Assembly (NCBI GenBank): GCA_025611195.1
Contig: GCA_025611195.1_4718.1
Source of the DNA: a phage
DNA length: 64,000 nt
Reading direction: 5' to 3' (one strand)
The position numbers and the translations under genes are program-made. Positions 12,961 through 37,684 of this stretch are shown here, piece by piece (the stretch's first letter is position 1; each line of letters opens with the position of its first letter). Below the pieces are notes generated by a model. The model saw only the letters and a program-made list of their open reading frames with translations. It did no database searches and had not been told where the DNA came from.

Positions 12961-12976
12961 CTGAACCATGGTTCAG
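12961..12976. promoter_or_regulatory. perfect 16-bp palindrome CTGAACCATGGTTCAG
   Basis: In the divergent region between the SbcC-like gene and 13047..14135. Confidence 0.3.
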
Positions 12977-13046
12977 AATGCGAAGCTGAAGCCATACTTC
13001 AGCGTTATTTTCTATATCGTTATTTAAATCAGTAGGAGATTACAGC

Positions 13047-14135
13047 ATGAGCGATCTGGCAACAGACAACCGCACAAAAGGGAGTCAGTTAGCTCCAGAC
13101 AGCAACGTAAGCGTTTTCCGTATCTTTGCCTTGGGTACCGTTGCTGCCGACTTTTCCAATAAAAGTCTGGAGGAAGATCCGAACCAGGCGCTGGAGGTCT
13201 TTCTTGACGAGATGATGTCAGGTGCTGACGGGAAAGTTGAAGCGGCGGGAAGCGTGAAAGAAGTTAGTGCAACAGACGCTCAAGGGAACAGTTATACCGC
13301 AAAAGCGGCAACAACAACCAGCGTACAGTGTTACTGGTTACCCTTTGGTAGTAACCGGATGACAGCACCTAACTTGAGGAAAGGTCAGCGTGTGGTGGTC
13401 TGGCGTACTGCCGATGAAGAACAACTCTACTGGCAGCCCAAAGGAGGGGATAGTGAGCTGATGACCATGGAATCGGTTATCCTCACCGTCAGTGCACGTC
13501 CTAGCGCTAAGAAGGACCGTAAATCGATTTCAACGGAAGACTGCTATTACCTAATGGTTGATACCTTTCTTAAGAAAGCGGTTATCGGTACAAGCGCACA
13601 GCTTGGTGAAGTTACCCAAGTCTACATGGAACTTAATCTGGACGAGGGTTACTTACAGGTTGCGGACAGCGTCCATCAAAACCTACTATTGCTCCATTTT
13701 GTCGAGCATATGCTGCGATACCAAAACCAGGACGACAGCATTATCGACGTAACAAAAAAGAACATCACATTCCAATGCGAGGATACGCTCAAAGCAATCG
13801 CTAAGAACGATATCCGAATGAAAGCAAAAAATATTTATACGGAATGTGAGAACTTTGAACGTACCAGCAAAACAGAAAGCGTTACGAGTCAGAATGTTTC
13901 TTTGAAATGCGATCGCTACACCGCGCAAGTATCAGGACAAACCATATTCAAATGTCCGAATACGGTATTCACCGGAGCCGTGAGTTTCACTGGTGAAGAC
14001 GGAAACACGATGACATTGAACGGTAACTTCATACACGTCGCGGGATCTTGGCGTTCACCAAGCGGAACAAACGTGTACACTCACGACCACGGTGGTGTTA
14101 AATCCGGTAGTAGTAGAACCGACCCGTTTCAATAA
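13047..14135 (+). CDS. hypothetical protein (possibly structural)
   Basis: 362-aa ORF, AGGAG SD; beta-rich C-terminus ending in YTHDHGG; function not recognised. Confidence 0.5.
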   Translation: MSDLATDNRTKGSQLAPDSNVSVFRIFALGTVAADFSNKSLEEDPNQALEVFLDEMMSGADGKVEAAGSVKEVSATDAQGNSYTAKAATTTSVQCYWLPFGSNRMTAPNLRKGQRVVVWRTADEEQLYWQPKGGDSELMTMESVILTVSARPSAKKDRKSISTEDCYYLMVDTFLKKAVIGTSAQLGEVTQVYMELNLDEGYLQVADSVHQNLLLLHFVEHMLRYQNQDDSIIDVTKKNITFQCEDTLKAIAKNDIRMKAKNIYTECENFERTSKTESVTSQNVSLKCDRYTAQVSGQTIFKCPNTVFTGAVSFTGEDGNTMTLNGNFIHVAGSWRSPSGTNVYTHDHGGVKSGSSRTDPFQ

Positions 14136-14158
14136 AACAAAAAAGAAATATAACATAG

Positions 14159-14193
14159 CCTCCTTCCCCGGCCTTGGTGGCTAGGGAAGGAGG
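14159..14193. terminator. GC hairpin (family-like stem, different loop)
   Basis: CCTCCTTCCC/GGGAAGGAGG 10-bp stem; between convergent genes; A-rich run upstream. Confidence 0.45.
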
Positions 14194-14208
14194 ATTATAG
14201 TTTATTTA

Positions 14209-14598
14209 TTAACGCACTGCGTTCTGGATGATTTCTTTTCCGATCTTAACCAAAGCAGGTATCTGCACAGCGGTTGCGCCTCGATGACGAAACGCGGTCG
14301 TTAACGCGGTATCGATACTCACAGCACGTCCGTGGAGACGATCGAAATAGACTTGCGTGATTGCAGCAGCGTAATCCTTTCGCTGTTTCTTGGTTTGGTT
14401 TAATAGCGCCGCACTATGGCTAACGATGAAGTAAGCGATTAAGAAGAACGCCGCCGACCGCGAACCGGGTAGAAAACCTTGTCGCTTAGGAAGCATCTCA
14501 CAATCGCGAACAGTATTATCGTTCGCGAGCTCATCCATGTCAACGCAGCATAATTTTGCATAGGTGTGGAGATAGTGGGTAAAAGTTGAATTTAACAT
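14209..14598 (-). CDS. small hypothetical protein with one TM helix
   Basis: ORF 14209..14646 trimmed to ATG 14598 (GAGGA upstream). Confidence 0.45.
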   Translation of the reverse strand: MLNSTFTHYLHTYAKLCCVDMDELANDNTVRDCEMLPKRQGFLPGSRSAAFFLIAYFIVSHSAALLNQTKKQRKDYAAAITQVYFDRLHGRAVSIDTALTTAFRHRGATAVQIPALVKIGKEIIQNAVR

Positions 14599-14704
14599 GT
14601 TTCTTTCCTCGATTACAATGAGTTCAATGTATAGCTTAAACGTCACAGAACGACGTGTAGCGATTTGTTTTAATTTCTAAGGGGTTTCCTTATCTAAGAT
14701 TGAT

Positions 14705-15067
14705 TTAAAGCGTTCTGAAGAGTTCTGTATCGTTCTCGTCACGTAAACACGCTTCGTTCAACAATTCAGCTAACAACTTCGACCGAACTTCAACAAATGT
14801 CCTGAGGCGATGCTTCCATTCTAAACAGACGGTGTATGAACGATCTAACTTTTTGTGCTCGACGATAGATGCCGTGCAGTAGGTTTCGCGTTTATTCACA
14901 TCGTCCCAAACATCACGAATGATCGTCAAGCCTTTCTCAGTACATGTAAACGTTATAACGTAGTGATTGTTCGCTACTTCAACACGAACATCAGTAAATT
15001 CGTTTCGTAACGATGAGGTCTTAGTTAAACGATCAATAGCGAGCGATAAACCAACACGTTGTTGCAT
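14705..15067 (-). CDS. small hypothetical protein
   Basis: ATG 15067 with AGAGGGG upstream. Confidence 0.45.
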   Translation of the reverse strand: MQQRVGLSLAIDRLTKTSSLRNEFTDVRVEVANNHYVITFTCTEKGLTIIRDVWDDVNKRETYCTASIVEHKKLDRSYTVCLEWKHRLRTFVEVRSKLLAELLNEACLRDENDTELFRTL

Positions 15068-15068
15068 A

Positions 15069-15494
15069 TCAGATCCCCTCTTTCAGAATCTCATTAAGGC
15101 CGTCAGTAATCCAGTCGAACTTCGTCTTAATCATAGCTGGGGTCAATCCGTATACTTCCCACACAAGCTGTGGTTTATGTGTTCCATCGTCCAAACAAAG
15201 CACATCGATTGAGAGCATCATACCGCCCGTCAGTTTCATGTTCTCACAACTACGAAGATATGCGGATTCTAGCAATACTTTCCCTAACGCGGTGCAAGCA
15301 AACGTTAACCGGGAAGAATACATGTACGATGAAGTTTTACAGTAGGTTGCTGATATCGGTTGAATATGTTTGCGGAGTTTGGCGTCTTCACGTAAAAGCA
15401 GTAACGTGCGATGTAAACGCGTATGCTCGGTAACCGATGGGCTATATTCACCGATACGCTCTTCGACTACTGATTTAGGCCATTTAATTTCCAT
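15069..15494 (-). CDS. small hypothetical protein (MEIK- N-terminus)
   Basis: ATG with GAGGAAG upstream; abuts neighbouring genes. Confidence 0.45.
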   Translation of the reverse strand: MEIKWPKSVVEERIGEYSPSVTEHTRLHRTLLLLREDAKLRKHIQPISATYCKTSSYMYSSRLTFACTALGKVLLESAYLRSCENMKLTGGMMLSIDVLCLDDGTHKPQLVWEVYGLTPAMIKTKFDWITDGLNEILKEGI

Positions 15495-15509
15495 GTTATC
15501 TTCCTCGTA

Positions 15510-15953
15510 TTAACACTGTGTTCCATTCGATAAGCGGGTGGTATCAAAACGATCCAGTTGGTGTACAATGCTATCAGCAACACGATGCAAATAGTGTATT
15601 TTGTCCATTCGTGAAATCGCAGAAATCGTCCAGCAAGCCTCTGACGTCCAATAGGTGCCGTCTTCACTAAGGCTAACGTTATAAACTAACTTCGTCATCA
15701 CATTTCTCGCCTTATGCTCAGCAGACCAGAATATGTTTTCTAACACATCCTTCCCCGTTTGTGAAAACACGAACCCAAGCTTCACGTCGAAGTCGGATGC
15801 TTCAAGATTAACGCAGTGAAGATGATTCTCTAACGGCGCAAAAGAGGCTAAACGTTCCAGCGCATGTTGCAGTGTGGGATGATCGAGCTTTTCGAGATCA
15901 TCCACAGGTTGTTCAGGTACAATCGCGATCGATTTACAGAATTTAATTTCCAT
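15510..15953 (-). CDS. small hypothetical protein (MEIK- N-terminus, possible paralog of 15069..15494)
   Basis: ATG with AGAGGA upstream; same N-terminal MEIK start and similar length to neighbour. Confidence 0.45.
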   Translation of the reverse strand: MEIKFCKSIAIVPEQPVDDLEKLDHPTLQHALERLASFAPLENHLHCVNLEASDFDVKLGFVFSQTGKDVLENIFWSAEHKARNVMTKLVYNVSLSEDGTYWTSEACWTISAISRMDKIHYLHRVADSIVHQLDRFDTTRLSNGTQC

Positions 15954-16065
15954 GGTAGGTTCCTCTTGATAGTGGTTGATGATAGTAACGGGGACGGCGA
16001 TGTCCCCTTGGTTTCTTATTGCCCCGCCCGAACCCGATGGGGTACAGGCGGGTGATGTTGATGCG

Positions 16066-16473
16066 TTATAGCGGCATCAGACGTTCTTTAAGTTGGGTTA
16101 ACTTATTTGCAACGATGTTCTCAACGCCGATCATCTTGTTCATGTTGTCGAGGGTATCCTGCCAGATGAAAATATCCACGGAACCGGTTCCGACTAACGC
16201 GTTCTCAGGACGATGGTCACGGGTCACGTAGCGTGGTCTCTGCGGGCAGGTTTGTAACTCGATCCAAAGCGCATCTAACGGACCACGGTCCGTGACACCT
16301 AAGGCGAAGAATTCACCTCGTACGACCAGAACATCATCAGCCGTCCTGACGCGGGTTGATCCTTCGTACACCAATTCCATCTTTGCTCGACAGGCTGGGT
16401 TCTCGTTCCACGCCTGGACGGCATCGGCAAGGGCTATTGACGTTGCGGTGGTGTTCGTTTGATCATGTTGCAT
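16066..16473 (-). CDS. small hypothetical protein
   Basis: ATG 16473 with AGGAG upstream. Confidence 0.45.
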   Translation of the reverse strand: MQHDQTNTTATSIALADAVQAWNENPACRAKMELVYEGSTRVRTADDVLVVRGEFFALGVTDRGPLDALWIELQTCPQRPRYVTRDHRPENALVGTGSVDIFIWQDTLDNMNKMIGVENIVANKLTQLKERLMPL

Positions 16474-16550
16474 TCTAAGCTCCTGTAACGCTATCTAAGC
16501 GTCGTTTTAAGTTAAGGTATAGTTTCCCTTCCTTGGGTTCGTTTATTGCG

Positions 16551-16826
16551 TTACACGGCTTTACAGCTTGCGTAAACCACAACTGTTCCGTTGTTGATTG
16601 CCTCAACAACATCCTGGGTCAGTTTGGTCGCGAGTTTATTATCCGCACTCGGTACGTAATAACCTTCCCCTGTTTCAGTGACTAGGCGATAACGTACTAA
16701 TCCTACCGCACGCTCGACGCGTATCACCTTTTCAAGTTTGTATTTGATGATCTTCGTCAGGCTGACGGCGTCTGATGCGTAGATTGCTTTATAAACCTTG
16801 TTCTTTGCTGTCGGTTTCATCAACAT
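16551..16826 (-). CDS. small hypothetical protein
   Basis: ORF 16551..16889 trimmed to ATG 16826 (AAGGA upstream) to avoid overlap with the upstream gene. Confidence 0.4.
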   Translation of the reverse strand: MLMKPTAKNKVYKAIYASDAVSLTKIIKYKLEKVIRVERAVGLVRYRLVTETGEGYYVPSADNKLATKLTQDVVEAINNGTVVVYASCKAV

Positions 16827-16848
16827 GGTTTCTGTTTTCCTTGGTTTA

Positions 16849-17682
16849 TCACGATGCCAGGTCAGCGATATCCCAATGGGTATAACCAACCTCGCGGATG
16901 AGCTCTGCTGTTTCTTCGAACAGTGGGGTAGGGCTAATGACCGGTAACCATTTCCCCTCTCGGGTTATCTTGACTTCGACGGTCTGTAAGTTCGTGTTCC
17001 AACGAACATCATAAACCAGCGCATAGCCAAGAGGATGAACAAGTCCATCTTGGTTAAATGTCTCCAAAAGACCTCGTACGTCTTCTTCGTAGGATGTTTT
17101 CGACAAGACAGCACGTACTCGTCGCAGTCTCTTCGTGATAACCTTTCCCAGCTCGATGCTCTCCCAGCCTGTCATGACGCAAGGATTGTCATCACGACGA
17201 AGAGACCGAGAAATATAAATAGAATCGCTCGCGGTAAGGTGTACCCACCCAAGATCGCAGTATGCGACAGGTCGTGGTGATTCTCCTTCGATAACCGTCG
17301 GTTCATCCAACATCGCCACAACACCGCAGTCTGCGAACTCCGGCGATACTTCATCCAGCATCTTAATACGGCTTTCTTGGCCGGTATGGTCAGGATCAAC
17401 ATGCGCGTAGTAGTAATTAGGCTCTATCGCACGGTATTGCGCAATACGTCTACGGAAGTCAGGATCCTGCATTCCCAGCGGATGGTAATACGCAAGCTGT
17501 TGCTTTATACCATCCTTGATTACCAACAGAAGATCTTCGCGATCTGATGCGGGATCTTCCACCACGATGTATTTAACAATCGCTTTCAGGTTCTTAACGA
17601 TGTTATCCGGAAGTTTCTCGATATCTCGAGCATCGTAGACGCGGTTAACTACAGTGCTTACAAGGTGTTTTGATAGGCTCAT
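16849..17682 (-). CDS. hypothetical protein, paralog of 18039..18821
   Basis: C-terminal VHPLGYALVYDVRWNTNLQTVEVKITREGKWLPVISP aligns with VHPLGFAWVSEVRYNPRKKRVEAKVLNERWLPVVQP of the other gene. Confidence 0.5.
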   Translation of the reverse strand: MSLSKHLVSTVVNRVYDARDIEKLPDNIVKNLKAIVKYIVVEDPASDREDLLLVIKDGIKQQLAYYHPLGMQDPDFRRRIAQYRAIEPNYYYAHVDPDHTGQESRIKMLDEVSPEFADCGVVAMLDEPTVIEGESPRPVAYCDLGWVHLTASDSIYISRSLRRDDNPCVMTGWESIELGKVITKRLRRVRAVLSKTSYEEDVRGLLETFNQDGLVHPLGYALVYDVRWNTNLQTVEVKITREGKWLPVISPTPLFEETAELIREVGYTHWDIADLAS

Positions 17683-17751
17683 CGATGATCTCTCTTTGTT
17701 ATTTCTACCGATAACTCGGCATAAGGGGACAATGATGTCCCCATGTTCATG

Positions 17752-18042
17752 TTAACTCCCTCTGTGGCATGAAAACAGAGCGTCTAATTGCTCCCGTTGT
17801 TCTTTTAAGTATGCGGGAAGCTGGTCTTCCCGTACCGTTCCGATTTCCAACGTGATGTACCAGCGTTGTTCGGAAGCCTGCCATTGAAAACTGCTCTGTA
17901 ACCTCAGGATGTTGGGATCGTGTACCATGCTTGCGCTGTAACGGTTGAACCAATTCAGGTATTCTGCTTTCCCTTCCTCGTCGGCAACGTAACGCTGCAC
18001 GCTGTTCTTCCCTTTGTTCTCGTATCCTGTTGCACGTATCAT
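17752..18042 (-). CDS. small hypothetical protein
   Basis: ORF 17752..18096 trimmed to ATG 18042 (AGGAG upstream, ATGA overlap with upstream stop); an alternative frame 17747..18091 is also open. Confidence 0.4.
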   Translation of the reverse strand: MIRATGYENKGKNSVQRYVADEEGKAEYLNWFNRYSASMVHDPNILRLQSSFQWQASEQRWYITLEIGTVREDQLPAYLKEQREQLDALFSCHRGS

Positions 18043-18821
18043 GCGAACGTTTCTCCTGTAACGTGTTGTGGGCGTTGTAGCATGGTAGCATCCCATTGTA
18101 CGATCCGGCTCCGGCTTACCCGCATCATGATGGATTCATCGTCAAGCCCTGGTTGCACAACCGGTAACCAACGTTCGTTAAGCACCTTCGCTTCAACCCG
18201 TTTCTTGCGTGGGTTGTAACGCACCTCGCTAACCCAAGCGAATCCAAGCGGATGGACCACCCGTGGATAATACATGCGAAGCAATTGATGCATCCGATCC
18301 AGTACCTCCAGGTCAGCATCGGTCAGGTATGGTTTCACCATGGTAAGCTTTTTGGTGTAATACGTTCCGGTGGTATGATTGATCCAACCAGGAAGCACGT
18401 GATGGAACCCTACCTGTAATGGCGTATCCCCGTTCACCTTCAACCAACCGTATCGCCCTGTCGCACGTCCCTCATCGTAAGCAACTTGTGCAAGCTGATC
18501 GATGAACGCACGATCGGTGATCTCGATGCGTTCCACCCGTTCATCCAACGCACCGCGTACCACGAATCCGCTCGCGCTCATCCGCGCAGGATGCTGGCTG
18601 CGATGCGCGTACCAATTCTTGTTGCCGGTAAGCAGGTAAGGGTACGTGTGAGCACCCCGCCAAACAACCGTTCCGTTCGTCCCATCAACACAGTGTACAT
18701 ACATCCCATCTTGACCGTTGTTGTAGCATGCTACCTTCACGCATTCGTTTTGAACATCGCTCGGTAACGCCAGGTATTCACCTTCGGTAAACATGGTATC
18801 AAAAATGATTTCGTCGTTCAT
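18039..18821 (-). CDS. hypothetical protein, paralog of 16849..17682
   Basis: ATG 18821 with AGAGGA upstream; first gene downstream of the AT-rich region. Confidence 0.5.
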   Translation of the reverse strand: MNDEIIFDTMFTEGEYLALPSDVQNECVKVACYNNGQDGMYVHCVDGTNGTVVWRGAHTYPYLLTGNKNWYAHRSQHPARMSASGFVVRGALDERVERIEITDRAFIDQLAQVAYDEGRATGRYGWLKVNGDTPLQVGFHHVLPGWINHTTGTYYTKKLTMVKPYLTDADLEVLDRMHQLLRMYYPRVVHPLGFAWVSEVRYNPRKKRVEAKVLNERWLPVVQPGLDDESIMMRVSRSRIVQWDATMLQRPQHVTGETFA

Positions 18822-18911
18822 CTAAAAAAGATCCTCTGTTTTTCACGTTAATTAAACAACGTATTGATTTCTATTTAACGCAATACGAACATTGTACGTA
18901 TGCATCATGAA

Positions 18912-18929
18912 GGTAATATAGTCGTGAAA
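18912..18929 (-). promoter_or_regulatory. conserved TATATTAC-containing motif (candidate phage promoter)
   Basis: Plus-strand GGTAATATAGTCGTGAAA; about 90 nt upstream of the first gene of the small-gene cluster (ATG 18821). Confidence 0.45.
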
Positions 18930-19031
18930 GGATTTGCATTAAAGCAAGGGTTTTGTTTTAAGAAGGGATGGATTTAGAAGAGGTGTTTCAAGGAAGGTAA
19001 ACGAGGATAGGTATTTTGATTTAAGTAAGAT

Positions 19032-19396
19032 GTTATCTGTATTTGTTAAAAGTGTATTGTCTATGTTATCTTGTTTATCTTAGGTTATGTCTTATTGTTT
19101 AATCGTTTTATCTTTGTAGGTTAAATTGTTCTAGTTATCTTGTTGTATAAAGTAATTCAATAAGCTTATCTTCAAAATGATAAATAACTTGTGTTTATTG
19201 TACATGCTAATCAAAAAACCATTTGTGATACTCTTCTTCACGTTGTTCATCAGAGTATCTCGTCTATACTCATTGCATTCGTATACGACATAACCGTTAT
19301 ACGCTAACGCTACGCTTATAGCTTGATAACTCTAAGGATAAAAACATAAACTCGCTTCGCTCGTTTAGTTTTTCTTTTTCTTAGAGTTATCTTGTT
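19032..19396. repeat. iteron-like direct repeats (GTTATCTTGTT) in AT-rich non-coding region
   Basis: Exact 11-mer at 19065..19075, 19134..19144 and 19386..19396, plus at least four degenerate TTATCTT copies at 19032..19180. Confidence 0.5.
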
Positions 19397-19557
19397 GCTC
19401 GTCTCTAAAGGACTTCGCTCCTCCCCCGTCCCCCGAAGGGGCCGAGGTCGTGGAAATTTTACTTTCCAAATACATTTACAACATCTGTAAACTTTTACTC
19501 CAGGTACTTAATCTTATCATTAGAAATTATAAAGAGAAGAATAAACACAAACATAAA

Positions 19558-19589
19558 CCTTCCTCCAACCCAACAGGGAAGGAGGAAGG
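19558..19589 (-). terminator. conserved two-tier GC hairpin (family copy)
   Basis: CCTTCCTCC/GGAGGAAGG stem, loop AACCCAACAGGGAA; directly after stop of 19603..20496. Confidence 0.45.
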
Positions 19590-19602
19590 GGATTAATTAA
19601 AA

Positions 19603-20496
19603 TTATTCGGAAACGTTGTAACCGAATACCGCTTTACCGTAGGTGTGAGTACCGTCAGCTAATGACAGCACCAACACGTGGTTGTACGTAGCGTTAACGC
19701 CTTTATCGGTGGAATCGGTGGTAGCACCGTTATAGACGAAAGTAGCCGTTTGCAGATTGGCTTTCAGCTCGGTGATGATCTCGTCGCCCACACCCGTCTG
19801 CTCTTTGATCAGCGTGGTCAGGTTACCTGCCAGGCTTTCATCGATCTTGGTTTCGTTACTGGTAATCGCCTGTAAACCTGCGGTGTAGGTACTGAAGTCT
19901 AACGGATAGGTTAACAGACGCGCTGAGGTCTTGGTGCCATCGCCTTCATCAACGTAGGTTAAGTTACCCAGGTTGGTAACCTTGATGATGTTGGACAGAT
20001 CCAGCGTGGTGTTATAAACCTTAACTTGAACAGAACCGTACCAAGCCAGCGAATCTTCTTTGGCTTTCAGGGTGATCGTCTGGATACCATGATCGTCGAA
20101 GGTAACCGGCGTAGCTAACGTATCGGCTTTGATGTCTTTCGCTTTATCCAGGAACTTCTCACCGGAAGGTGTGATCATACCGTAGCGTTGAGCTACAAGG
20201 TCAACCACATCACCGATGGTGGTGTTTTTATTAACGTTAACGCGTACGGCGATCTTCTGGAACCACTTAGCCAGATCCAGACGATGATAGGTAACATCGC
20301 GGTCATTGAAGTAAGGAGTACCTTCACCAGGGCTAAGCGTTAAAGTTGCATCTGGAGCAGAATCGCTTTTGGATTTAAGAACGTATTTAAGGTCGGTGGG
20401 TTTGAAGTTGGCACCCGTATCGGCGTTGAGTGTGTTAATCTCATCAACGATAAGTTGCCAAGGTGTTTTTAAAGTAAGTGATACTTGAGCTGTCAT
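19603..20496 (-). CDS. putative virion structural protein (YxRxDL / LAW[TY]GSV paralog family)
   Basis: Motifs YHRLDLAKWF and SLAWYGSVQVKVY shared with 20643, 31567, 33389 and 34251 genes; fairly host-adapted codons; GAGGAAG SD. Confidence 0.55.
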   Translation of the reverse strand: MTAQVSLTLKTPWQLIVDEINTLNADTGANFKPTDLKYVLKSKSDSAPDATLTLSPGEGTPYFNDRDVTYHRLDLAKWFQKIAVRVNVNKNTTIGDVVDLVAQRYGMITPSGEKFLDKAKDIKADTLATPVTFDDHGIQTITLKAKEDSLAWYGSVQVKVYNTTLDLSNIIKVTNLGNLTYVDEGDGTKTSARLLTYPLDFSTYTAGLQAITSNETKIDESLAGNLTTLIKEQTGVGDEIITELKANLQTATFVYNGATTDSTDKGVNATYNHVLVLSLADGTHTYGKAVFGYNVSE

Positions 20497-20533
20497 TTTC
20501 TTCCTCGATGGTTGTTACATTACTCTCAAAAGA

Positions 20534-20547
20534 TGTAAACGTTTACA
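20534..20547. promoter_or_regulatory. perfect 14-bp palindrome TGTAAACGTTTACA
   Basis: Centred in the 146-bp divergent region between two codon-optimised structural genes (19603..20496 and 20643..21185), flanked by TATATA runs. Confidence 0.35.
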
Positions 20548-20642
20548 GAAATTAATATATCTTTATATATAAAATGTAAATACTATGGAGAACGACTCCG
20601 ACTCTCCTTTTCGACCATCAAAAAATCAGAGGATACATAATC

Positions 20643-21185
20643 ATGGCCTTAGACTTTAACAAAGCAGCCAAATCCCTTCTGCTTGATCTTATCAACACCA
20701 AAGCAACCCGCCCACTGACTGAAGAAGAACTGCAGTTCGGTACTCCGGGAGCATCTTCCGAACATGAAAAGAACACCGTTATCCAGCTGGATGCTGCAGC
20801 TGAAGCAGCTAACCTGCAGGGTACTCAGCAGTTCTACTACGATCGTCTGGCTCTGTCCGAAGTTTTCGCTGATGTAACCAGCGATGTTACTTTCGAACTG
20901 CCGCACGGCACTGACAGCATTAAGGCTTCCGAGCTGGTAAGCAAGCTGGTCACCAAATTCGGTCTGGCTTCCCTGACCGGTGAAATCAATGAAGAAACCT
21001 TCCAGCTGTCTGCTGGCACTGTTGGTGAAGTAACCCTGACTGCGATCGAGGGTGGTCTGGTATATACCGGCACCCTGCAGGTTGCACTGACCTACGCACC
21101 AGCACCGAAAGACGAACTGGCAACCGTTCTGGCGAATAACGTAGCTGAAGGTTTCGTGAAACCTGAAGTTGCTGTCGTTGGCTAA
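20643..21185 (+). CDS. abundant small structural protein (short member of the same paralog family)
   Basis: Strongly biased codon usage (CTG, GGT, ACC, GAA) like the capsid gene; motifs FYYDRLALSEVF and GGLVYTGTLQVALTY; GAGGA SD; double stop codon. Confidence 0.6.
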   Translation: MALDFNKAAKSLLLDLINTKATRPLTEEELQFGTPGASSEHEKNTVIQLDAAAEAANLQGTQQFYYDRLALSEVFADVTSDVTFELPHGTDSIKASELVSKLVTKFGLASLTGEINEETFQLSAGTVGEVTLTAIEGGLVYTGTLQVALTYAPAPKDELATVLANNVAEGFVKPEVAVVG

Positions 21186-21384
21186 TAAGCACGTAGAGCA
21201 ATAGTATGGGTTTTGTACAGCTCGGCTATTGCTCTTCTACAATTTGGTTGTAACAATCTGCGTGGTTGCACGCTTATCTTTCTCAATGAGCGCTTCATAC
21301 GAAGCGTGGTGTTGAAAGGGTTGTGGATCTCCTCAAGCGGCCAGGGACCCAGACCAACCTGAATAAACACAAACACATGTTAAG

Positions 21385-21416
21385 CCCCTCCTCATCCGTT
21401 ATTGGGTGGGGAGGGG
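21385..21416. terminator. GC hairpin with U-rich tail
   Basis: 13-bp stem CCCCTCCTCATCC/GGGTGGGGAGGGG (two G-U pairs), loop GTTATT, then TCTTATACGTCTTTAT; between convergent genes. Confidence 0.45.
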
Positions 21417-21479
21417 TCTTATACGTCTTTATGCGTTCCGTTCGTTCTGGAGCGTTTTAGGACGGTTTATGATGGTGTT

Positions 21480-22115: not shown

Positions 22116-22241
22116 TAGAACTCCTCATTTAAATAACGATTTAGAGGAACAGGAAGGGTCTAGAACGCGATAAACGATTTAACCCAGGCAAACCCTAGAT
22201 TAAACTTTTCGAAGCGTTACAACGCGTTCTAGAACGCTGAA

Positions 22242-24290: not shown

Positions 24291-24303
24291 AACCTGGAGG
24301 TCC

Positions 24304-26907: not shown

Positions 26908-26919
26908 TATTCACCTCGA

Positions 26920-27405: not shown

Positions 27406-27409
27406 GCGG

Positions 27410-27919: not shown

Positions 27920-27976
27920 TTTCACGTCCTATCGAAAAATAAAAAGAAGGAAAGGTGGGTAGAACCCACCCATCCA

Positions 27977-30130
27977 TTATAACGTTTCGAAGTCTTTTGC
28001 CTTGATGACCGCGTTGAAGTTGGCAAGGAATTCCTTAAGTAATGCTTGGAAAACATCGCGGAACGCCGCGTTCGTCTTCAAGCTGGTTAAATAATCGTTC
28101 TTAAGGTAATCACTAAGCTTACCGATCTTCTGCATTGTCACGCCTTCATCGTTCTCTCCGGGTTCCTGGCTATTGATATTAGCCCACTTGATCCCTTCGA
28201 GATCGCCATCAGCAAGGAAGTTAGCTGGCGTCTCATCATCGTTAAGGATTTTGATCGTGTCGCTGGATTCAATACCACCGTAAGCTTCCAGAAGCTGGTT
28301 GACGGTCAACTTATTGACGTTGATTGAACCATTAGCACCATCGATACCGAGTCCGGTACCCGTGATAGACGTTGCTGAAAGATCGATTGGTCCGGTTAAC
28401 TTACCCCCATTGATAGGGAGCGCACCGACTTGTTCGGCTGTGTGCGTGTGATCTGCTAACGCCGCGAACGCTGCAATCGACTTGTAAGTCGAGTACGGTG
28501 TCATGTACGCCGTCTGGTTAGTCCTGTCAGCAGCTTGCACATCGGTGGCGACAGCAAAGTCCTGTACGTTCCCTAACCCCACTTGTACCTTGGTTACTTC
28601 ATGCGGGTTACTCTTATCGACAACGTGTGCTGCAAAACCATCACCTGCTAAAGCGATGATCGCTGCTTTTGTCGCAGCCGGTGTCATATAGCGGTTGGTC
28701 GCTACACCTGTTTGCGCTTCCACATCAGAAGCAACAGGGTAGTTCTCAACACTCCCCAACCCAACCTGGGTTTTCGTTACCCTGTGCGGGTTCTCGGTAT
28801 TTGCGATGTGGCTACTGAACCCTTGACCAGCCATTTGCTCGATCGCGTAACGAACAAGTATTGGTGTCATGTACTTGTTGTTAGCCTGACCGTCGATCGC
28901 TTCTTGGGTAGTAGCAACCCCAAAGTTCTGCACACTTCCCAGACCGACTTGGGCTTTTGTCACCCCATGCGGGTTATTGGTGTTACCGATATGTTCGGTT
29001 ACGGTTGGGGTGATTAACGCTGCGATAGCGGCGGCTGTGGTCGCAGGCGTCATGTATTTGTTGTTAGCAACACCCGCACCAGCTTCCCCATTAGACGCTA
29101 CACCATAGTTCTGTACGTCCCCCAGCCCTACCTGTGCTTTCGTAACAGCATGAGGGTTGTTATTATCCTCGGTATGGGTTGTTAACGTAGCGTTGACATG
29201 ATCGATGCGTGTACTTAAGCCGTCCGTGATTGCCTTGATTGCTGCTCGTACACCCGCTGGAGTCGTGTACAGATTAGTGGCTGTACCGGTAACGGTTGTA
29301 TTATCATCGGCTACACCGTAGTTCTCAACGTCTCCGAGTCCCACCTGGGCTTTGGTCACCTTGTGTGGGTTGTTGCGGTTACTGATGTGTGCGGCGGCAC
29401 TATCACCACTAAGGTTAGCGATCATCTTGCGCGTCATCGCCAACGTCATGTACAGATTTTCACCGACAGTTTCCAGATCGCTCTCAGTCGCTGTTGTGAA
29501 ATTCTGCACATTCCCTAAGCCCACCTGGGCTTTCGTAACGCCGTGGGGATTATCGCGTCGATTCTCATGCTGTACTAACGCAGTCATTGCTTTATTGAAC
29601 CCTTCTTCAAGCGGTTCTTTCAATGACTCGATTGCAGCCACCACATCGTCCCACGTCATTGTGTCGGTTTCGACATTATGTTGGTGGTTGATTGGTGGGA
29701 ATACAGAAGGAACGTCGGCAACCTTTTCCCAGAACGTAACACGAGGATCGTAAAGGTTGTTGGCTAAAACGTTAAGAATTTGTTGTTGATCAAGTGTAAA
29801 CTCACCCCCCAGTGAATAGTAGTTCAGTTGCAACTGTCCACTGAATGCGGTGTCCAACAGCATGATGGAACCGTATAATTCCAGGCCGGTCAGCGCAGCC
29901 ATGGCACGGAAGGGGTGAGTGCATAAAAAGTCAACGCCTTCTTCCAGATACGCGTTTGTTTCAGGGTTGTAGATCTTTAACCCATTACGAAAATAGGGTG
30001 CGTATTTAGGAACGAGAAAGTTAAATCCGGTCCCCGTGGAAGGACGGACAGTGACGAGTTCTTCTGGAACCCATGCGCCATCCAAATTCCCCTGCGGGTT
30101 ATACGGAAGGCGTTTAATTTCATCTGTCAT
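27977..30130 (-). CDS. tail fibre protein
   Basis: Six NPHxVTKAQVGLG(N/S/D)V(Q/E)N(F/Y) repeats; N-terminal region similar to that of the 22242..24290 fibre; no chaperone domain. Confidence 0.8.
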   Translation of the reverse strand: MTDEIKRLPYNPQGNLDGAWVPEELVTVRPSTGTGFNFLVPKYAPYFRNGLKIYNPETNAYLEEGVDFLCTHPFRAMAALTGLELYGSIMLLDTAFSGQLQLNYYSLGGEFTLDQQQILNVLANNLYDPRVTFWEKVADVPSVFPPINHQHNVETDTMTWDDVVAAIESLKEPLEEGFNKAMTALVQHENRRDNPHGVTKAQVGLGNVQNFTTATESDLETVGENLYMTLAMTRKMIANLSGDSAAAHISNRNNPHKVTKAQVGLGDVENYGVADDNTTVTGTATNLYTTPAGVRAAIKAITDGLSTRIDHVNATLTTHTEDNNNPHAVTKAQVGLGDVQNYGVASNGEAGAGVANNKYMTPATTAAAIAALITPTVTEHIGNTNNPHGVTKAQVGLGSVQNFGVATTQEAIDGQANNKYMTPILVRYAIEQMAGQGFSSHIANTENPHRVTKTQVGLGSVENYPVASDVEAQTGVATNRYMTPAATKAAIIALAGDGFAAHVVDKSNPHEVTKVQVGLGNVQDFAVATDVQAADRTNQTAYMTPYSTYKSIAAFAALADHTHTAEQVGALPINGGKLTGPIDLSATSITGTGLGIDGANGSINVNKLTVNQLLEAYGGIESSDTIKILNDDETPANFLADGDLEGIKWANINSQEPGENDEGVTMQKIGKLSDYLKNDYLTSLKTNAAFRDVFQALLKEFLANFNAVIKAKDFETL

Positions 30131-30162
30131 GATGCGCCCTTTACAAGTTGTTAGTAAGTGTG

Positions 30163-30180
30163 GGATACCCTGGGGTATCC
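30163..30180. promoter_or_regulatory. 18-bp palindrome GGATACCCTGGGGTATCC
   Basis: Between divergent starts of the fibre gene (30130) and 30235..31515; AATATTACTGTAAC lies 20 nt downstream. Confidence 0.3.
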
Positions 30181-30234
30181 TGTGTTAACAGCGGTAAAAT
30201 ATTACTGTAACTATAAAATAAGGGGGCCTCTCCC

Positions 30235-31515
30235 ATGTATACATTGGTAAAAACTTACGGATTACCCGTAGGTTCCGGCACGGCCTGGACAGCACTTGAG
30301 GCGGGTGAAAGTGTCCTGAGTACGTTGTTCTCAGCGTATCAAAAACTCAAGATCCAGGTTCATGAAAGCTATGCTGACCAGCAACAAGTTATTGATCTGT
30401 ACACATTTCAATCCGAGCTTCAAAACAGCAATGACACGCTCAATGCGTGGTTGAAAGCGAAATCGGATGCGCACACCAACCTTCGAGGACAGCCTGGTGA
30501 GCTGTCGATTAAAACCCACAAGCTTTATTGTCACGACGTTATTACCGTAGGCTTTCTCCCTAAAGTCGGTAATAGCGGTTATCATCCGAGCAACGCGATC
30601 CCTGAGTCGGAACGTACCGATATCCTGTTGACGAAAGCGGATACGAATTACGAAAATATCGGCAAACATTGCTTGTTCACCGTAGGCGGTTATGTTCATC
30701 CTCATGTTTACGGTAAAGACGTCGGTGTCTATATCCAGGGTGGGTTCGAGACAGCACAGCGTAGCCAAGAAAACGATATCGGCATGATTGATTTTAGTCG
30801 TATCGGGAGTTTGGAAATCCACGCTATCACAGAAGAGATGCTTGCTGATTCCACGAAGCTCTTGCCGTATAAGGACGAGATGTACTTACGGCTACCACGC
30901 AAGGTCGCCGAAGATGAAACCGTCGCGCTTGTGTTCGGGGGATATCTACACCTTCTTGACGATTGTTACACGATCGTTAGTGACACGACGGCAAAAATAA
31001 ACTGCAGAAACATGTTTCTGTATGAAAGATACTTCCGCTCCCGCAAATACCTTGATTTAACGTCTCTTGGTATTCTGTTGAACGAAGAAGACCCGCAGTC
31101 CGATATTGTTGCCAATCGTTTACTGTCTGATAAGACTTTAAAAGCATGGGTGACACACCCCTGCAGTTTCTGGGTGTATATCAAAGCAACATCGATTCAG
31201 GTTACACAAGAACCTTTACCACGAAGTGGTGTACCAGGACAATATTTCTTAGGTAAGAAACCGGAAGGACTGATTCGAGCTGACCTCGGTGAGTTACCGG
31301 CTTACGTGCAGACCTATGAAAAACCGTTATGGGTACTTCACTCACGCTGGGGACTTCGTAAGAACATGTTGTTTGAAAACACGTTGTACAAACATACACG
31401 CGTTAAGCGGCTTAACGATACACCTTATCTTCACCAGGTCTGGTTGGAAACGCACGCGACGTTGCAGACAGTACATAAGCTCGAATTGATCGATTCCAGT
31501 CAGAAAAACAAATAA
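30235..31515 (+). CDS. hypothetical protein in tail module
   Basis: 426-aa ORF, ATG with AAGGGGG upstream; only + gene within the tail module. Confidence 0.5.
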   Translation: MYTLVKTYGLPVGSGTAWTALEAGESVLSTLFSAYQKLKIQVHESYADQQQVIDLYTFQSELQNSNDTLNAWLKAKSDAHTNLRGQPGELSIKTHKLYCHDVITVGFLPKVGNSGYHPSNAIPESERTDILLTKADTNYENIGKHCLFTVGGYVHPHVYGKDVGVYIQGGFETAQRSQENDIGMIDFSRIGSLEIHAITEEMLADSTKLLPYKDEMYLRLPRKVAEDETVALVFGGYLHLLDDCYTIVSDTTAKINCRNMFLYERYFRSRKYLDLTSLGILLNEEDPQSDIVANRLLSDKTLKAWVTHPCSFWVYIKATSIQVTQEPLPRSGVPGQYFLGKKPEGLIRADLGELPAYVQTYEKPLWVLHSRWGLRKNMLFENTLYKHTRVKRLNDTPYLHQVWLETHATLQTVHKLELIDSSQKNK

Positions 31516-31525
31516 ACAAACATAA

Positions 31526-31557
31526 CCCTCCTCCAACCCATCAGGGAAGGAGGAGGG
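31526..31557. terminator. conserved two-tier GC hairpin (family copy)
   Basis: CCCTCCTCC/GGAGGAGGG stem, loop AACCCATCAGGGAA; between convergent genes. Confidence 0.45.
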
Positions 31558-31566
31558 AATATGTTG

Positions 31567-32472
31567 TTATGCCACGTATAACGTTAGATAACCGTCGATG
31601 AGCGTATTCATCACACTGAGTTGAAGTACAACAGCTTTACGAGCGTCTGTACGTACACCAAATGGTAGTGTTTTGAAATGCTCTGGATCGGCTATTACTT
31701 TCGCATTCTGCAAGTTGAGCGGTCCAGGTATTGACGACAATACCCAACGATCGTTGGCCGTAAGACCGTCGATCTCTTCAGAGAGACCCAATTGCAGTGC
31801 GTTCATTTCTGCGATTAATGCCTCCGATTGTGTATCACCTGAGGTTAACGTATACCCATCAGTAAGTGACGTTAGAACATCATCAGACATGAACCAGTTG
31901 TACGAAACAATAGCGCCTGGGAGTTTATCACTATCTCGATCGATGAGATAATTCAACCCAGCCAACATATTGTTGCGAATGAGGTTGTTGAGGTCGTTAT
32001 GTCCTGAAGTTAACTCAACAAGTAATTGACCAACCCATACTTGGTTACCAGGTTTAGGTGTTATCGCAACATGTATCGGTGATTTGGATTTATCCAGATC
32101 CGCGTCGACAATCTCGGTTTTATTGAGAAGGATACCGTACGTTGATGCTAAGACAGGTAATATCTCAGAGACCTTGGTCAGCGCGTCTAAGGTTTCGATC
32201 TCGATGGGCCAGCGGTGCTGGCCACCAGACCAAATACCCAGTTTACCAAGATCAACGCGGTTATAATAGATGTCGACAGAGTTCACCAGCCCTGAACCTG
32301 GTTGGGGATGCACAGTTAACTTGCTGTTACGCTTGTACCCTGTGCTTTCAGAAGCCTCACCGATAACCAGTTTATCCAGCGTTACGCCTCGAGCATCGAA
32401 ATCGCTATGCTTTCGAATCAGCCGAAAGAGGATTTCTTTCGATTCTAACCCTAGGATTTCACTGTACTCCAT
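31567..32472 (-). CDS. putative structural protein (paralog family)
   Basis: Motifs YYNRVDLGKL, NQVWVGQLLVELT and ANDRWVL...LNLQNAKV shared with 33389 and 34251 genes. Confidence 0.55.
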   Translation of the reverse strand: MEYSEILGLESKEILFRLIRKHSDFDARGVTLDKLVIGEASESTGYKRNSKLTVHPQPGSGLVNSVDIYYNRVDLGKLGIWSGGQHRWPIEIETLDALTKVSEILPVLASTYGILLNKTEIVDADLDKSKSPIHVAITPKPGNQVWVGQLLVELTSGHNDLNNLIRNNMLAGLNYLIDRDSDKLPGAIVSYNWFMSDDVLTSLTDGYTLTSGDTQSEALIAEMNALQLGLSEEIDGLTANDRWVLSSIPGPLNLQNAKVIADPEHFKTLPFGVRTDARKAVVLQLSVMNTLIDGYLTLYVA

Positions 32473-32487
32473 TTAACACCCCTTAGG

Positions 32488-33372: not shown

Positions 33373-33388
33373 GTCTTTTCCTATTTAA

Positions 33389-34240: not shown

Positions 34241-34250
34241 TGTTTATTCC

Positions 34251-35198: not shown

Positions 35199-35245
35199 GC
35201 CAGGAATTAATTAAAAAAGACTTTACGATTTGCTGCACTATCACG

Positions 35246-37657
35246 TTAAGCGTCCTCGATAGGCAAAGGTTTAACAATCAAACGATTGAGCGGATTCGAT
35301 AGACGCATACTGATAGGCTTATACGCAACATGATTCGTCTCACTTAGAACCGCTGACCTGAAACGACCATTCACCTGTTTGTAGATTGGTTCTATCCAAA
35401 GACCTCGAAGGTCATGTTTGCGGAAACGCTGTTCGAACGGTTTGATCGGGTTTATAGTCAGCCCATGCAACGACTCCGACAGTAAACGCTCACGAAGATC
35501 GCGTGGTGCCCGACCTGGGAACGGCGCAAGCCACAAACCATCGAGTGGGTTTTTACGGAAACGTAACGAGATAGGATCACTGACGACTTGTGCCCAATAT
35601 TGCGTACTGAATCGAACGGTTTGAGTATTCTCGTAACCGCTACAATCGCACCAGGTTGGTTTCGGAGGCGCTTCCAAACTTTCAACCGCTGATTCACGCC
35701 AGTTCGTCATCGGGTTGTTATCATGTACGAATTTGATAACTTCCGTAGCCTGGTTATCCGTATCGTGAACGTTTGCTTGCGCCCAGTCTTCCCACAGTTC
35801 TTCACTACCGCGTACTAAACTCGAACCAAGACGAACGGCGATTTTGTTTAGCGGCTTGATTGGATCGCTGTTGATTGTCTGGATAAAATGGATGGTGTAA
35901 CTGCTCAATGTCTTAAGCAGCTGCAGCATTCCGTATTGAATATCCTTAAGACTGGTGACATCTTCCAAATCTTGACCGGTGGCCTTTGTGAAGATATCGA
36001 GAGCTAGGATTCCCGCCTCTTCTTGACTGATTGCGTCAAGCTCCCAATCCATCGCTAAGAACCATTCCTTGTAAAGCTGACCGATACCGAAGTCGACACC
36101 AACATCCATGTAGAAATTTTCAACGATCGCTTCAGCCATGCCTCGAGCTTGATAATGTTCTTGGAGCTGGTACATGAACTGATGACGACGCCAGCCTTGG
36201 TAAATCTCGGTAACGACGTTGAGAAACTCTTCAGTACTGACGACCGCACGCAGCGTCACTTGCTTATCCAAACACCACCAGATCAGTTTATCGGGAATGA
36301 TAGCAGGATCGGTAATGCTGCGGAGATGGTCGAATGTCGGTAGCGTCAATACCCGGACATGGTTAGCATGTATCTTAGGTACTTCAATCAGCGTCATGCC
36401 CATCGAATAGTTAAGCAAGTACAAGAACAGCTTGTATGCATCTTTCATCGACATCGTCATGGTATCACCCGTCACCGGGTTGGTTGTCGTTAACCGTGAC
36501 TGATACATGCCTATTGCGCTAAGATGGATCCATTCATTCAGTAGGAAATCATACTTAGGATACAATTCACTGTCTGTAAGGTCTTCCGCTTCACTTTCCA
36601 ACACCTTGGTCGTTAAGGTGTTGTTGTCGTGCATCGACATCTTCTCTATTGTGCGGTTAAGCTCGGTATAATACTCTGCTTCGTTATCCCGCGCTAAAGG
36701 GAACTGTTGCTGCATCACGGTGGTGACCTTACGTCTTACCGTACCGTTGCCGACGATCTCTTGAAGGTTAAGCGGTTTACGCTCCATGTAAACTGTAGGT
36801 TTTAACGTCTGAGGTATCTCGGAAGCGTCTTGTTTGATCGAGAACGCACCGATTGGAATTCCACGTTCGGTTAATACCTTTTGAATGAGCTTATCGTAGT
36901 TTTCCGTTCTGCCCATGTTTCTTTCAACGTAAGCGATGTTACGATAGAACCAGAGCATTTGGGATTCGGTCATGTATCGCTCGAAACGATCGAGACCTTG
37001 ATGGCTTGCCAGATAACTCCAGATATGGAAGCTATGGGCATAATGGGTATGACAGTTTTCCCAACGAATACCTTTTATCATCTCAGGTATTTGTGTGAAT
37101 AGGATGGCGTATAACGCAGGCCAATGAAGCATATCGACGCTTTCATACGCCGGATGTTCCCAACGTCTAAAGTAGTCGTCGATTTCCTGCTGTAACCGTG
37201 GAATAAGGTTGGCCTCGCGCGATTCAACCTCTCGTGTATCGTACCAGAGAATCTCATGATTGCGTGCCGCAATTGCTTTCTCGATATCGATGGGGTTAAG
37301 GATACCCAAGATCAACATACGTTGTTCCGGGTACCGCGCAATTAAACGATTGAAATAATCTCCACCATACGCGTACTCCCTTGCCGTCATGCGGTGCCGT
37401 AACATGTTTTCCTTGGTGAACTCGATCTCTTCGAGCGTATCCAGGGAATTTACGGTCATCATTGTCTGACAAGGATGATACTCGCCAGCGAGATTCATGT
37501 AGTATAACCACGTGCGTGGGTCGTCCCCGACGGCCATCTGGTAGACTTCGGAAACCTTGAGGTTTAACCGTTCTGCCGTGATGTCGCTTTTAATAATCAG
37601 GGTGTCCGTTAGACGCTGCACGCTTTCCGAATAAAGCTGATAGTCAGTGTTGGACAC
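35246..37657 (-). CDS. large hypothetical protein with C-terminal RFRK...GLW repeats
   Basis: ORF 35246..37726 (TTG); GTG at 37657 has GGAGGA 6 nt upstream and avoids overlap with the divergent + gene; start uncertain. Confidence 0.5.
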   Translation of the reverse strand: MSNTDYQLYSESVQRLTDTLIIKSDITAERLNLKVSEVYQMAVGDDPRTWLYYMNLAGEYHPCQTMMTVNSLDTLEEIEFTKENMLRHRMTAREYAYGGDYFNRLIARYPEQRMLILGILNPIDIEKAIAARNHEILWYDTREVESREANLIPRLQQEIDDYFRRWEHPAYESVDMLHWPALYAILFTQIPEMIKGIRWENCHTHYAHSFHIWSYLASHQGLDRFERYMTESQMLWFYRNIAYVERNMGRTENYDKLIQKVLTERGIPIGAFSIKQDASEIPQTLKPTVYMERKPLNLQEIVGNGTVRRKVTTVMQQQFPLARDNEAEYYTELNRTIEKMSMHDNNTLTTKVLESEAEDLTDSELYPKYDFLLNEWIHLSAIGMYQSRLTTTNPVTGDTMTMSMKDAYKLFLYLLNYSMGMTLIEVPKIHANHVRVLTLPTFDHLRSITDPAIIPDKLIWWCLDKQVTLRAVVSTEEFLNVVTEIYQGWRRHQFMYQLQEHYQARGMAEAIVENFYMDVGVDFGIGQLYKEWFLAMDWELDAISQEEAGILALDIFTKATGQDLEDVTSLKDIQYGMLQLLKTLSSYTIHFIQTINSDPIKPLNKIAVRLGSSLVRGSEELWEDWAQANVHDTDNQATEVIKFVHDNNPMTNWRESAVESLEAPPKPTWCDCSGYENTQTVRFSTQYWAQVVSDPISLRFRKNPLDGLWLAPFPGRAPRDLRERLLSESLHGLTINPIKPFEQRFRKHDLRGLWIEPIYKQVNGRFRSAVLSETNHVAYKPISMRLSNPLNRLIVKPLPIEDA

Positions 37658-37684
37658 GATCGGTCCTCCAAGGAGCCAGTGTAA

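Follow-up and report, generated by a model that had tools for sequence, protein, structure and literature searches.

Inverted repeats in short divergent gene junctions of a Goslar-like chimallivirus: three unrelated elements, one of them a candidate upstream element of late promoters

Introduction

In the 64,000-nt stretch of phage DNA analysed here (contig GCA_025611195.1_4718.1 of GenBank assembly GCA_025611195.1; referred to, at its full length, as the window), neighbouring genes repeatedly stand head to head with very little DNA between them, and several of these divergent junctions contain palindromes. This locus raises the questions of how two genes can be started from so small a gap, and whether the palindromes are regulatory sites shared by both. 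An earlier note on the same DNA held that the gaps leave no room for two conventional sigma70 promoters, and proposed compact phage-specific promoters and possibly shared bidirectional sites at three perfect palindromes. The answer that we favour, with confidence somewhat above even, is that the junctions carry short phage promoters and that the palindromes are three separate things: a GTAA-N4-TTAC dyad serving as a late-promoter element, a stem in an mRNA leader between gp029 and gp030, and an accessory insert between gp012 and gp013.

The phage of the window is a Goslar-like chimallivirus and so belongs to the nucleus-forming jumbo phages of the phiKZ type. Over its full length, a 12-kb piece is 93.8% identical to Escherichia phage vB_EcoM_Goslar, with no other match in the phage collection, and Goslar genes gp189 via gp001 to gp053 are all collinear on the window. 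Three open reading frames (ORFs; 16849-17682, 53384-54364 and 54372-55145) are absent from Goslar and represent insertions at gp019/gp020 and gp046/gp047. The Goslar record contains several split "RNA polymerase beta subunit" genes, a nuclear shell protein and PhuZ. Gene models were transferred from Goslar to the window and define the intergenic gaps. Comparisons were made with eleven close relatives at the gp012/gp013 junction (L011-L021), with sister-clade contigs whose proteins are 48–72% identical to those of the window and whose synteny is retained, and with phiKZ (L034).

Transcription in phiKZ-type phages is independent of the host RNA polymerase, and their early promoters carry an AT-rich motif of ~10 nt centred near -10 (PMC7598289, PMC4666361). 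For late promoters the known signal is only 5'-TATG-3', which overlaps the start site and, being so short, cannot specify a promoter by itself (PMC7598289, PMC4666361, PMC7618050); it is necessary, not sufficient (PMC4666361). Two phage-encoded multisubunit RNA polymerases would transcribe the genes of the window.

Results

Inverted repeats in the divergent junctions

Divergent junctions in the window are as follows.

J1, 945-998 (54 bp): gp189 (minus) and gp188 (plus); placed by Goslar gene transfer, identical in Goslar
J2, 5504-5652 (149 bp): gp004 (minus) and gp005 (plus)
J3, 12934-13046 (113 bp): gp012 (SbcC-like, minus) and gp013 (baseplate, plus)
J4, 20497-20642 (146 bp): gp022 (minus) and gp023 (plus), both virion structural; holds the second palindrome
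J5, 30131-30234 (104 bp): gp029 (minus) and gp030 (plus)
J6, 37658-37684 (27 bp): gp035 (minus) and gp036 (plus); two ribosome-binding sites back to back, CCTCC and GGAG
J7, 50212-50250 (39 bp): gp042 (minus) and gp043 (DnaB-like, plus); TATG at 50212-15

The five junctions of the earlier note (J1, J3, J5, J6 and J7) coincide exactly with the gaps between the transferred gene models; J2 and J4 were missing from its list. Two of its three palindromes are indeed perfect. The first, CTGAACCATGGTTCAG, extends to a perfect 20-mer, TTCTGAACCATGGTTCAGAA (12959-12978), and the second, TGTAAACGTTTACA at 20534-20547, is a perfect 14-mer. The third, GGATACCCTGGGGTATCC at 30163-30180, is an imperfect inverted repeat, its two 8-bp arms being separated by TG, which is not self-complementary. 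The note had overlooked a fourth repeat, GCTGAAG-ccata-CTTCAGC (12985-13003), 6 bp past the 20-mer. Counting repeats with arms of at least 7 and spacers of at most 8, the 632 bp of divergent junctions contain 4 inverted repeats versus 0.37 expected from 3000 dinucleotide-preserving shuffles (P = 0.0003), and for arms of at least 10 the probability is P = 0.007. Taken singly, the 14-mer and the 8+2 repeat are marginal against chance. With these corrections, the palindromes are real and non-random.

Repeats of this kind could nonetheless be functionless, arising by chance or as by-products of template switching at quasi-palindromes during replication and tolerated in non-coding DNA. In 64 kb, chance alone should produce about one perfect 16-mer and some four perfect 14-mers, which agrees with this explanation, but the joint excess in the junctions and the excess of long arms do not, and we regard it as improbable. 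The earlier model, in which every palindrome serves as an operator for its two divergent genes, both controlled by a single bound dimeric regulator, gains from the fact that all four repeats lie in divergent junctions above chance. However, the three palindromes have no motif in common, so that three separate regulators would be needed; an intergenic-versus-intergenic BLAST comparison found only TACCTTCTGAACC, which J3 shares with the DNA preceding gp055, and GTATGAAATTTCC, which J1 shares with the DNA preceding gp087. The three palindromes are unrelated to each other and not one system, and the operator model appears unlikely for the set as a whole.

A GTAA-N4-TTAC dyad upstream of candidate late start sites

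The 14-mer of J4 belongs to a recurrent family. In an unbiased census of Goslar inverted repeats, GTAAA-N2-TTTAC ranked top, with 5 intergenic and 0 coding exact matches. The more general GTAA-N4-TTAC has 12 intergenic and 4 coding matches in a genome of which 7% is intergenic, while 12 control palindromes of equal composition gave 0–2 intergenic matches each, and spacers other than N4 gave 0–1. The window contains 7 matches versus 1.0 expected, a number reached in none of 100 shuffles. Besides a copy in J5 (below) and two further copies deep in coding sequence, the dyads and the features associated with them are:

19487-19498: dyad GTAAACTTTTAC, within a 781-bp gene-free stretch; identical in Goslar at 15706
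20534-20547, core 20535-20546: dyad formed by the 14-mer TGTAAACGTTTACA, in J4
20584-20607, plus strand: TATG (20584-87) followed by hairpin GGAGA-N11-TCTCC, a candidate late start and 5' stem-loop of the gp023 mRNA
30247-58: dyad 12 nt inside gp030
49478-49537, minus strand: putative promoter region of the major capsid gene gp041, with dyad 49526-37, ACTATAG box 49515-21, TATG 49489-92 (CATA on the plus strand) and +1 hairpin 49478-89

The copy inside gp030 is probably non-functional, as synonymous changes break it in one sister-clade contig (L023).

Half-sites are more constrained than the centre. At the 14-mer locus relatives carry GTAAGTGTTTAC or GTAAGTATTTAC, with the arms kept and the centre variable, and GTAAGTGTTTAC recurs exactly in front of the capsid gene. 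Only the window phage has the perfect 14-mer, its relatives having TGTAAGTGTTTACA. That point would suit a functionless palindrome, but the 14-mer belongs to a strongly intergenic motif family and its position is kept in three clades.

The dyad also stands in a regular relation to TATG. In Goslar, TATG follows it in the sense direction after 33–34 nt at gp023, the major capsid gene gp041, the tail sheath gene gp218 and gp213, and lies 31–56 nt upstream of the start codon of these four genes. Upstream of gp041 in the window the order is dyad, 33 nt, TATG. Upstream of gp023, the dyad is followed by TATG after 31–32 nt in L022 and L027, and across three clades this TATG is found 31–37 nt past the dyad and 50–53 nt upstream of the ATG. 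Conservation is most extensive at the capsid gene, where ~100 nt of promoter and leader, also including CACGCGTG, are shared by three clades; the whole module is kept in L031 and L033, whose capsid proteins are 72% and 68% identical to that of the window. Dyad centres at this gene read GTGT, AAAT and AGTG in the different clades, with 33–34 nt to TATG or, in one clade, TAGG. An ACTATAR box lies 4 nt past the dyad at both the capsid gene and gp030 in all clades. The +1 stem of the capsid gene covaries (GGUC/GACC, GGUCU/AGGCC, GGUCC/GGGCC), and at gp023 each clade has a hairpin of its own directly past TATG.

A dimer-binding site would be expected to combine constrained half-sites, a fixed spacing, a free centre and occurrence at several loci, and of the three palindromes GTAA-N4-TTAC alone does so. 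Because its half-sites are conserved, its spacing is fixed and its centre is free, the dyad resembles such a site, and most likely it binds a dimeric phage factor or a sigma-like polymerase subunit. Because it sits at a fixed distance from TATG at the most highly expressed virion genes, the pattern suggests a role as an upstream late-promoter element. Classical transcription-factor sites have the same appearance, and 5 of the 12 intergenic dyads of Goslar lie in divergent junctions, which gives the operator model, and the earlier suggestion of shared bidirectional sites, limited support at the 14-mer; on the other side, dyads occur in tandem and convergent gaps too. At the 20-mer and the J5 repeat the suggestion of shared sites is not supported.

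A J5 stem in the same place with different sequences

Three features of J5 are relevant here.

30163-30180, either strand: inverted repeat GGATACCC-TG-GGGTATCC, hairpin of about -11 kcal/mol
30176-30188: block TATCCTGTGTTAA, overlapping the right arm of the repeat, conserved across clades and unique in the genome
30194-30226, plus strand: dyad GTAAAATATTAC, 4 nt, then ACTATAAAATAAGGGGG, comprising the ACTATA box and the ribosome-binding site of gp030

The right half of J5 is strongly conserved in the sister clades, in the order TATCCTGTGTTA, dyad, ACTATAR-AATAAGGGGG, ATG. Dyad position and half-sites are kept in L022, L023 and L024, with centres AATA, TATT and ATGT, and the conserved blocks on either side occur nowhere else in the genome. 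The inverted repeat behaves differently. Its stem reads GGAUACC/GGUAUCC in the window, GAUGCGCC/GGCGUAUC with one G.U pair in L022 and GAUAAGCC/GGCGUAUC with one mismatch in L024, and the region folds at -10 to -14 kcal/mol in three lineages and at -3 to -5 in L023. For this stem, as for those at gp023 and the capsid gene, the lineages compared are too few for statistics.

Because its position is kept while its sequence has changed, the J5 repeat appears to be structural rather than a protein site. We consider it most likely a leader stem-loop of either the gp029 or the gp030 mRNA. The complete change of arm sequence between clades, with pairing retained, is not the behaviour of a dimer operator and counts against the earlier model at this junction; the maintenance of a hairpin with a different sequence in sister clades speaks against a functionless repeat. 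In Goslar only, a TATG lies immediately 5' of the hairpin, the window and two relatives having TGTG. It was not adopted as a start site, since it is not conserved and has no dyad 33 nt upstream.

A further possibility is that the hairpins act at the RNA level only, those of J4 and J5 being 5' stem-loops that protect mRNAs from decay. The clade-specific stems right past TATG at gp023 and the capsid gene fit this. The J5 stem of L022 fits it less readily, its G.U pair on the plus strand being a C.A mismatch on the minus strand, and hairpins do not follow TATG as a general rule.

The J3 hairpins lie in an accessory insert

Both hairpins of J3 fall within a segment that is present in some phages and absent from others.

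12958-13005: accessory insert of 48 nt containing both J3 hairpins, delimited by alignments
12959-12978: perfect 20-bp palindrome TTCTGAACCATGGTTCAGAA
12985-13003, plus strand: hairpin GCTGAAG-ccata-CTTCAGC followed by GTTATTTTCT, terminator-like; the loop contains a minus-strand TATG (12993-12996)

Among the eleven close relatives, L017 cleanly lacks the 48-nt segment 12958-13005, and L015 has lost both hairpins by a deletion between CTTC direct repeats. No trace of the insert was found in the sister-clade junctions (L027-L030), which, together with those of the close relatives lacking it, measure 58–67 bp. Being dispensable in two close relatives and in the sister clades, the insert is accessory, and we take it for neither a core promoter of gp012 or gp013 nor an essential operator shared by both. 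In all carriers the arms of the 20-mer, TTCTGAACC and GGTTCAGAA, are invariant, with AT, ACG, CGT or CAT at the centre. ACG and CGT (12966-12968) are exact inversions of each other in near-identical phages, which suggests hairpin-mediated template switching. Beyond the window, Goslar has a related second copy, TACCTTCTGAACC-gtt-GATTCAGAAG, in front of gp055; both copies precede a minus-strand gene and follow a minus-strand TATGGC.

These observations bear on all three alternatives. Two CTGAA-N-TTCAG repeats stand side by side in J3, an arrangement in keeping with an operator, but the half-site spacing of the 20-mer shifts between N2 and N3, and relatives and sister clades do without the palindrome, neither of which is expected of a dimer-binding site. 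The ACG/CGT inversion is a signature of template switching and, like the dispensability of the insert, would suit a functionless sequence; invariance of the arms in every carrier and the existence of a second copy would not. The RNA-level explanation could take the form, at this junction, of a small RNA of ~70 nt, running from TATG (G at 12939) to the 12985-13003 hairpin and its U-tract and antisense to the gp012 leader, or of an attenuator in the gp013 leader. GTTATTTTCT follows the hairpin, which was picked up by a terminator scan, and the Goslar annotation likewise has a putative terminator here. Folding of the 108-nt plus-strand leader is better than that of all of 200 shuffles (z = -3.4, 0/200 folding as well), the loop of the 20-mer varies while its arms stay fixed, and for phiKZ frequent antisense RNAs have been reported. 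Against it, a terminator in this divergent junction has no upstream gene on its strand to terminate, and no Rfam family matches at the gathering score anywhere in the window. We regard an exclusively RNA-level role for the hairpins as a tentative possibility. For the J3 insert itself, a non-essential structured gp012 leader, a small antisense or plus-strand RNA, and an attenuator or terminator are all plausible roles.

Short promoters and short junctions

The proposal of compact phage-specific promoters is right, and such promoters were known already for the phiKZ-type family. The argument that there is no room for sigma70 promoters is beside the point, as this family does without the host polymerase. 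Sigma70-like sites at 12000-31999 numbered 19 versus 26.6 +/- 5.2 in shuffles, so that they are not enriched and if anything depleted, and divergent sigma70 promoters were rejected on the lack of enrichment of -35/-10 pairs.

Early promoters are readily recognised. A 40-nt motif, ...TTTCACGnCTAyATTACCTAnGTGA, with a phiKZ-like TATATTAC core occurs 4 times in the window and 14 times in Goslar, in every case on the minus strand and 14–160 bp upstream of minus-strand genes, including the nuclear shell gene in Goslar. It is a member of the chimallivirus early-promoter family: the TATATTAC-like core resembles that of phiKZ and 201phi2-1, whereas the extended consensus is peculiar to Goslar. Copies in the window are:

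5526-5565, minus strand: early promoter (virion RNA polymerase type) of gp004, ...TTTCACGGCTATATTACCTAGGTGA, 47.3 bits
18904-43, 47030-69 and 55200-39, minus strand: other early-promoter copies

With a position weight matrix built from 12 Goslar copies and a cut-off of 12 bits, J2 alone among the junctions has a match, with none in J1, J3, J4, J5, J6 or J7. Early promoters were accordingly rejected as the cause of the junctions listed earlier, most of which flank virion (late) genes.

Candidate late initiators were sought among TATG sites, which occur in the junctions at 962, 5591, 12936, 20584 and 50212 on the plus strand and at 12993 on the minus strand. At gp188, gp023, gp043 and the capsid gene TATG lies 33–53 nt upstream of the ATG. 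The site in J1 is:

961-973, plus strand: GTATGAAATTTCC, with TATG at 962-965, candidate late initiator of gp188, 33 nt before the ATG

The same 13-mer lies upstream of Goslar gp087 in the sense orientation. Between clades, TATG persists at gp023 and, in most of them, at the capsid gene; at J7 and J5 it does not. As in phiKZ late promoters such as P119L, which start at the G of TATG, a minimal initiator overlapping the start and the absence of a -35/-10 pair would make very short junctions possible. The two differ in that phiKZ late promoters are reported without conserved upstream sequence, while the window phage has the dyad 33–37 bp upstream at several late genes.

Comparison with related phages, which the earlier note had suggested, shows that the short lengths are kept in sister clades. 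J6 is 27 bp in both the window and L022, with the same CCTCC/GGAG arrangement; J5 is 104 bp versus 105 (L022), 92 (L023) and 104 bp (L024); J4 is 146 bp versus 136 bp in a sister clade; and J7 is 39 bp versus 36–37 bp in L031 and L033. J3 is the exception, at 113 bp versus 64–67 bp (L015, L017, L027-29) and 58 bp (L030). In phiKZ the divergent gp128/gp129 junction measures 35 bp (L034 12330-12364), and very short head-to-head junctions between virion genes are family-wide. Divergent gaps of 27–150 bp are possible because the promoters of the phage polymerases are short. The ribosome-binding sites of J6, CCTCC (37665-69) and GGAG (37672-75), are near reverse complements as had been noticed, for the trivial reason that two Shine-Dalgarno sequences sit back to back. 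Short junctions and back-to-back ribosome-binding sites are ordinary for this family. Gaps of the size of J6 and J7 (27–39 bp) would be too small for a leader and a promoter, so start sites would fall inside the opposite gene and divergent mRNAs would overlap head to head at their 5' ends.

Terminators and other features

A hairpin family, CCCTCCTCCAACCC-N4-GGGAAGGAGGAGGG, marks every convergent junction and several tandem gaps:

2975-3006, 7123-7154, 14159-14193, 19558-19589 and 21385-21416: terminators of this family
31526-31557, 40623-40657, 47090-47119, 51888-51919 and 55260-55291: further terminators of this family

These are flanked symmetrically by CATAAA...TTATG(C), such that in each direction the hairpin is followed by TTTATGC, which contains TATG. 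TTTATGC was found in 12 upstream regions versus 1.4 expected. A terminator hairpin closely precedes each of the early-promoter copies at 47030 and 55200, on the strand that is transcribed. The largest perfect palindrome of the window, CAAGGTCCTCTGATATCAGAGGACCTTG (28 bp, 4813-4840), lies in the tandem gap gp003/gp004 and is annotated as a terminator in Goslar. Outside the window, a 12-bp palindrome, AATGACGTCATT, is present in two divergent junctions of Goslar (142859-142870 and 172929-172940), and both of these (gp159/gp160 and nuclear shell gene/gp245) also hold early promoters. In the gp005 leader (5591-5606), TATG directly precedes a small hairpin GGGCT-aag-AGCCT; relatives keep the stem with loop ttt, and Goslar has TATA. 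The gene-free stretch at 18822-19602 (781 bp), which exists likewise in Goslar at 14972-15825, holds one early-promoter copy, one GTAA-N4-TTAC dyad and one terminator. It may encode a non-coding RNA, without an Rfam or tRNA match; the whole window gave no tRNAs. An exact-sequence look-up of the gp030 protein of the window returned no record.

Discussion

The late genes at these junctions would start at TATG-like initiators read by the non-virion RNA polymerase. The dyad, ~42 bp upstream, would help to recruit or direct this polymerase, adding specificity to a TATG that is too short by itself, and the stems at or just past the start, clade-specific at gp023 and the capsid gene, would shape the 5' ends of the mRNAs. 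That the dyad is the site of a dimeric factor, either phage-encoded or a domain of a sigma-like subunit, which from ~42 bp upstream gives late promoters their missing specificity, is a more specific proposal that we put forward with reserve, as a possibility rather than as the expected outcome. The dyad, together with its fixed relation to TATG at late genes, is the only one of our results that goes beyond the literature searched, where no description of Goslar promoters or of GTAA-N4-TTAC was found.

Several observations weigh against the reading that we prefer. The dyad has a TATG at 33–34 nt in only 4 of the 12 intergenic cases in Goslar, 8 being without such a partner, and other copies there lie in tandem or convergent gaps or are directed away from genes. 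The 33-nt spacing was itself picked after seeing the data, at roughly P = 0.01–0.06, and at gp023 in the window a 4-bp insertion makes it 37 nt. In a sister clade the J4 dyad is GTAACGTTTAAC, an asymmetric GTAA-N4-TAAC that weakens the argument from symmetry; L031 has TAGG in place of TATG at its capsid gene; and no dyad is present upstream of the phiKZ capsid gene. TATG in the sense orientation is only weakly enriched in intergenic DNA genome-wide (62 versus 47 regions), and the TATG of J7 was rejected as an initiator because it is not conserved in the sister clades L031 and L033. Likewise, a general rule that a hairpin follows TATG was unsupported (Mann-Whitney P = 0.36) and was dropped. At J5, L023 has only a weak GGTTAC/GTAATC palindrome, and the junction is 100% identical among four close relatives, so that fine-scale covariation is not seen. 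Finally, promoter assignments, start sites, hairpin strands and protein binding are all deduced from DNA sequence.

Known systems offer partial parallels. The middle promoters of T4 are activator-dependent and have a MotA box at -30. They resemble the arrangement seen here in having a short core and a separate upstream box at a fixed distance, whereas the window phage differs in using a polymerase of its own in place of the host enzyme, in the palindromic form of the element and its greater distance upstream, and in a binding protein that is only postulated. In E. coli, 5'-terminal stem-loops of the ompA type stabilise mRNAs; here, stems begin at a candidate start site or no more than 4 nt away from it at gp023, at the capsid gene and, in Goslar, at gp030, and differ in sequence between clades with pairing kept, but there is no genome-wide tendency of this sort. 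The virion RNA polymerase of phage N4 is a single-subunit enzyme that recognises a 5–7 bp stem with a 3-nt loop. A small DNA hairpin in the promoter region and a phage that brings its own polymerase are common to both cases; N4-type hairpin promoters were dropped as an explanation, the hairpins of the window being unrelated in sequence and the J3 insert dispensable. Closer to home, the middle promoters of phiKZ have an A-rich run and then TACT, whose centre is at -22 (PMC8244752), a motif that resembles one half of the dyad. Many copies of the dyad read GTAAAnnTTTACT, with TACT likewise coming after A-rich sequence. The window phage differs in its strict N4 dyad and in the distance of ~42 nt, not 22, from the candidate start; enrichment of the trailing T of the dyad, present in 9 of 12 copies versus ~6 expected, is not significant.

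Overall, what we describe is a modest variation on the known promoter architecture of chimalliviruses. The late and middle promoters of this group are poorly defined, and a dyad at the capsid, sheath and other virion genes provides a hypothesis that can be tested by mutation. If it is correct, the dyad would explain why TATG is "necessary but not sufficient", and in divergent junctions it could serve both directions. It would also give a handle on the factor involved and on engineering expression in Goslar, an E. coli-infecting model chimallivirus.

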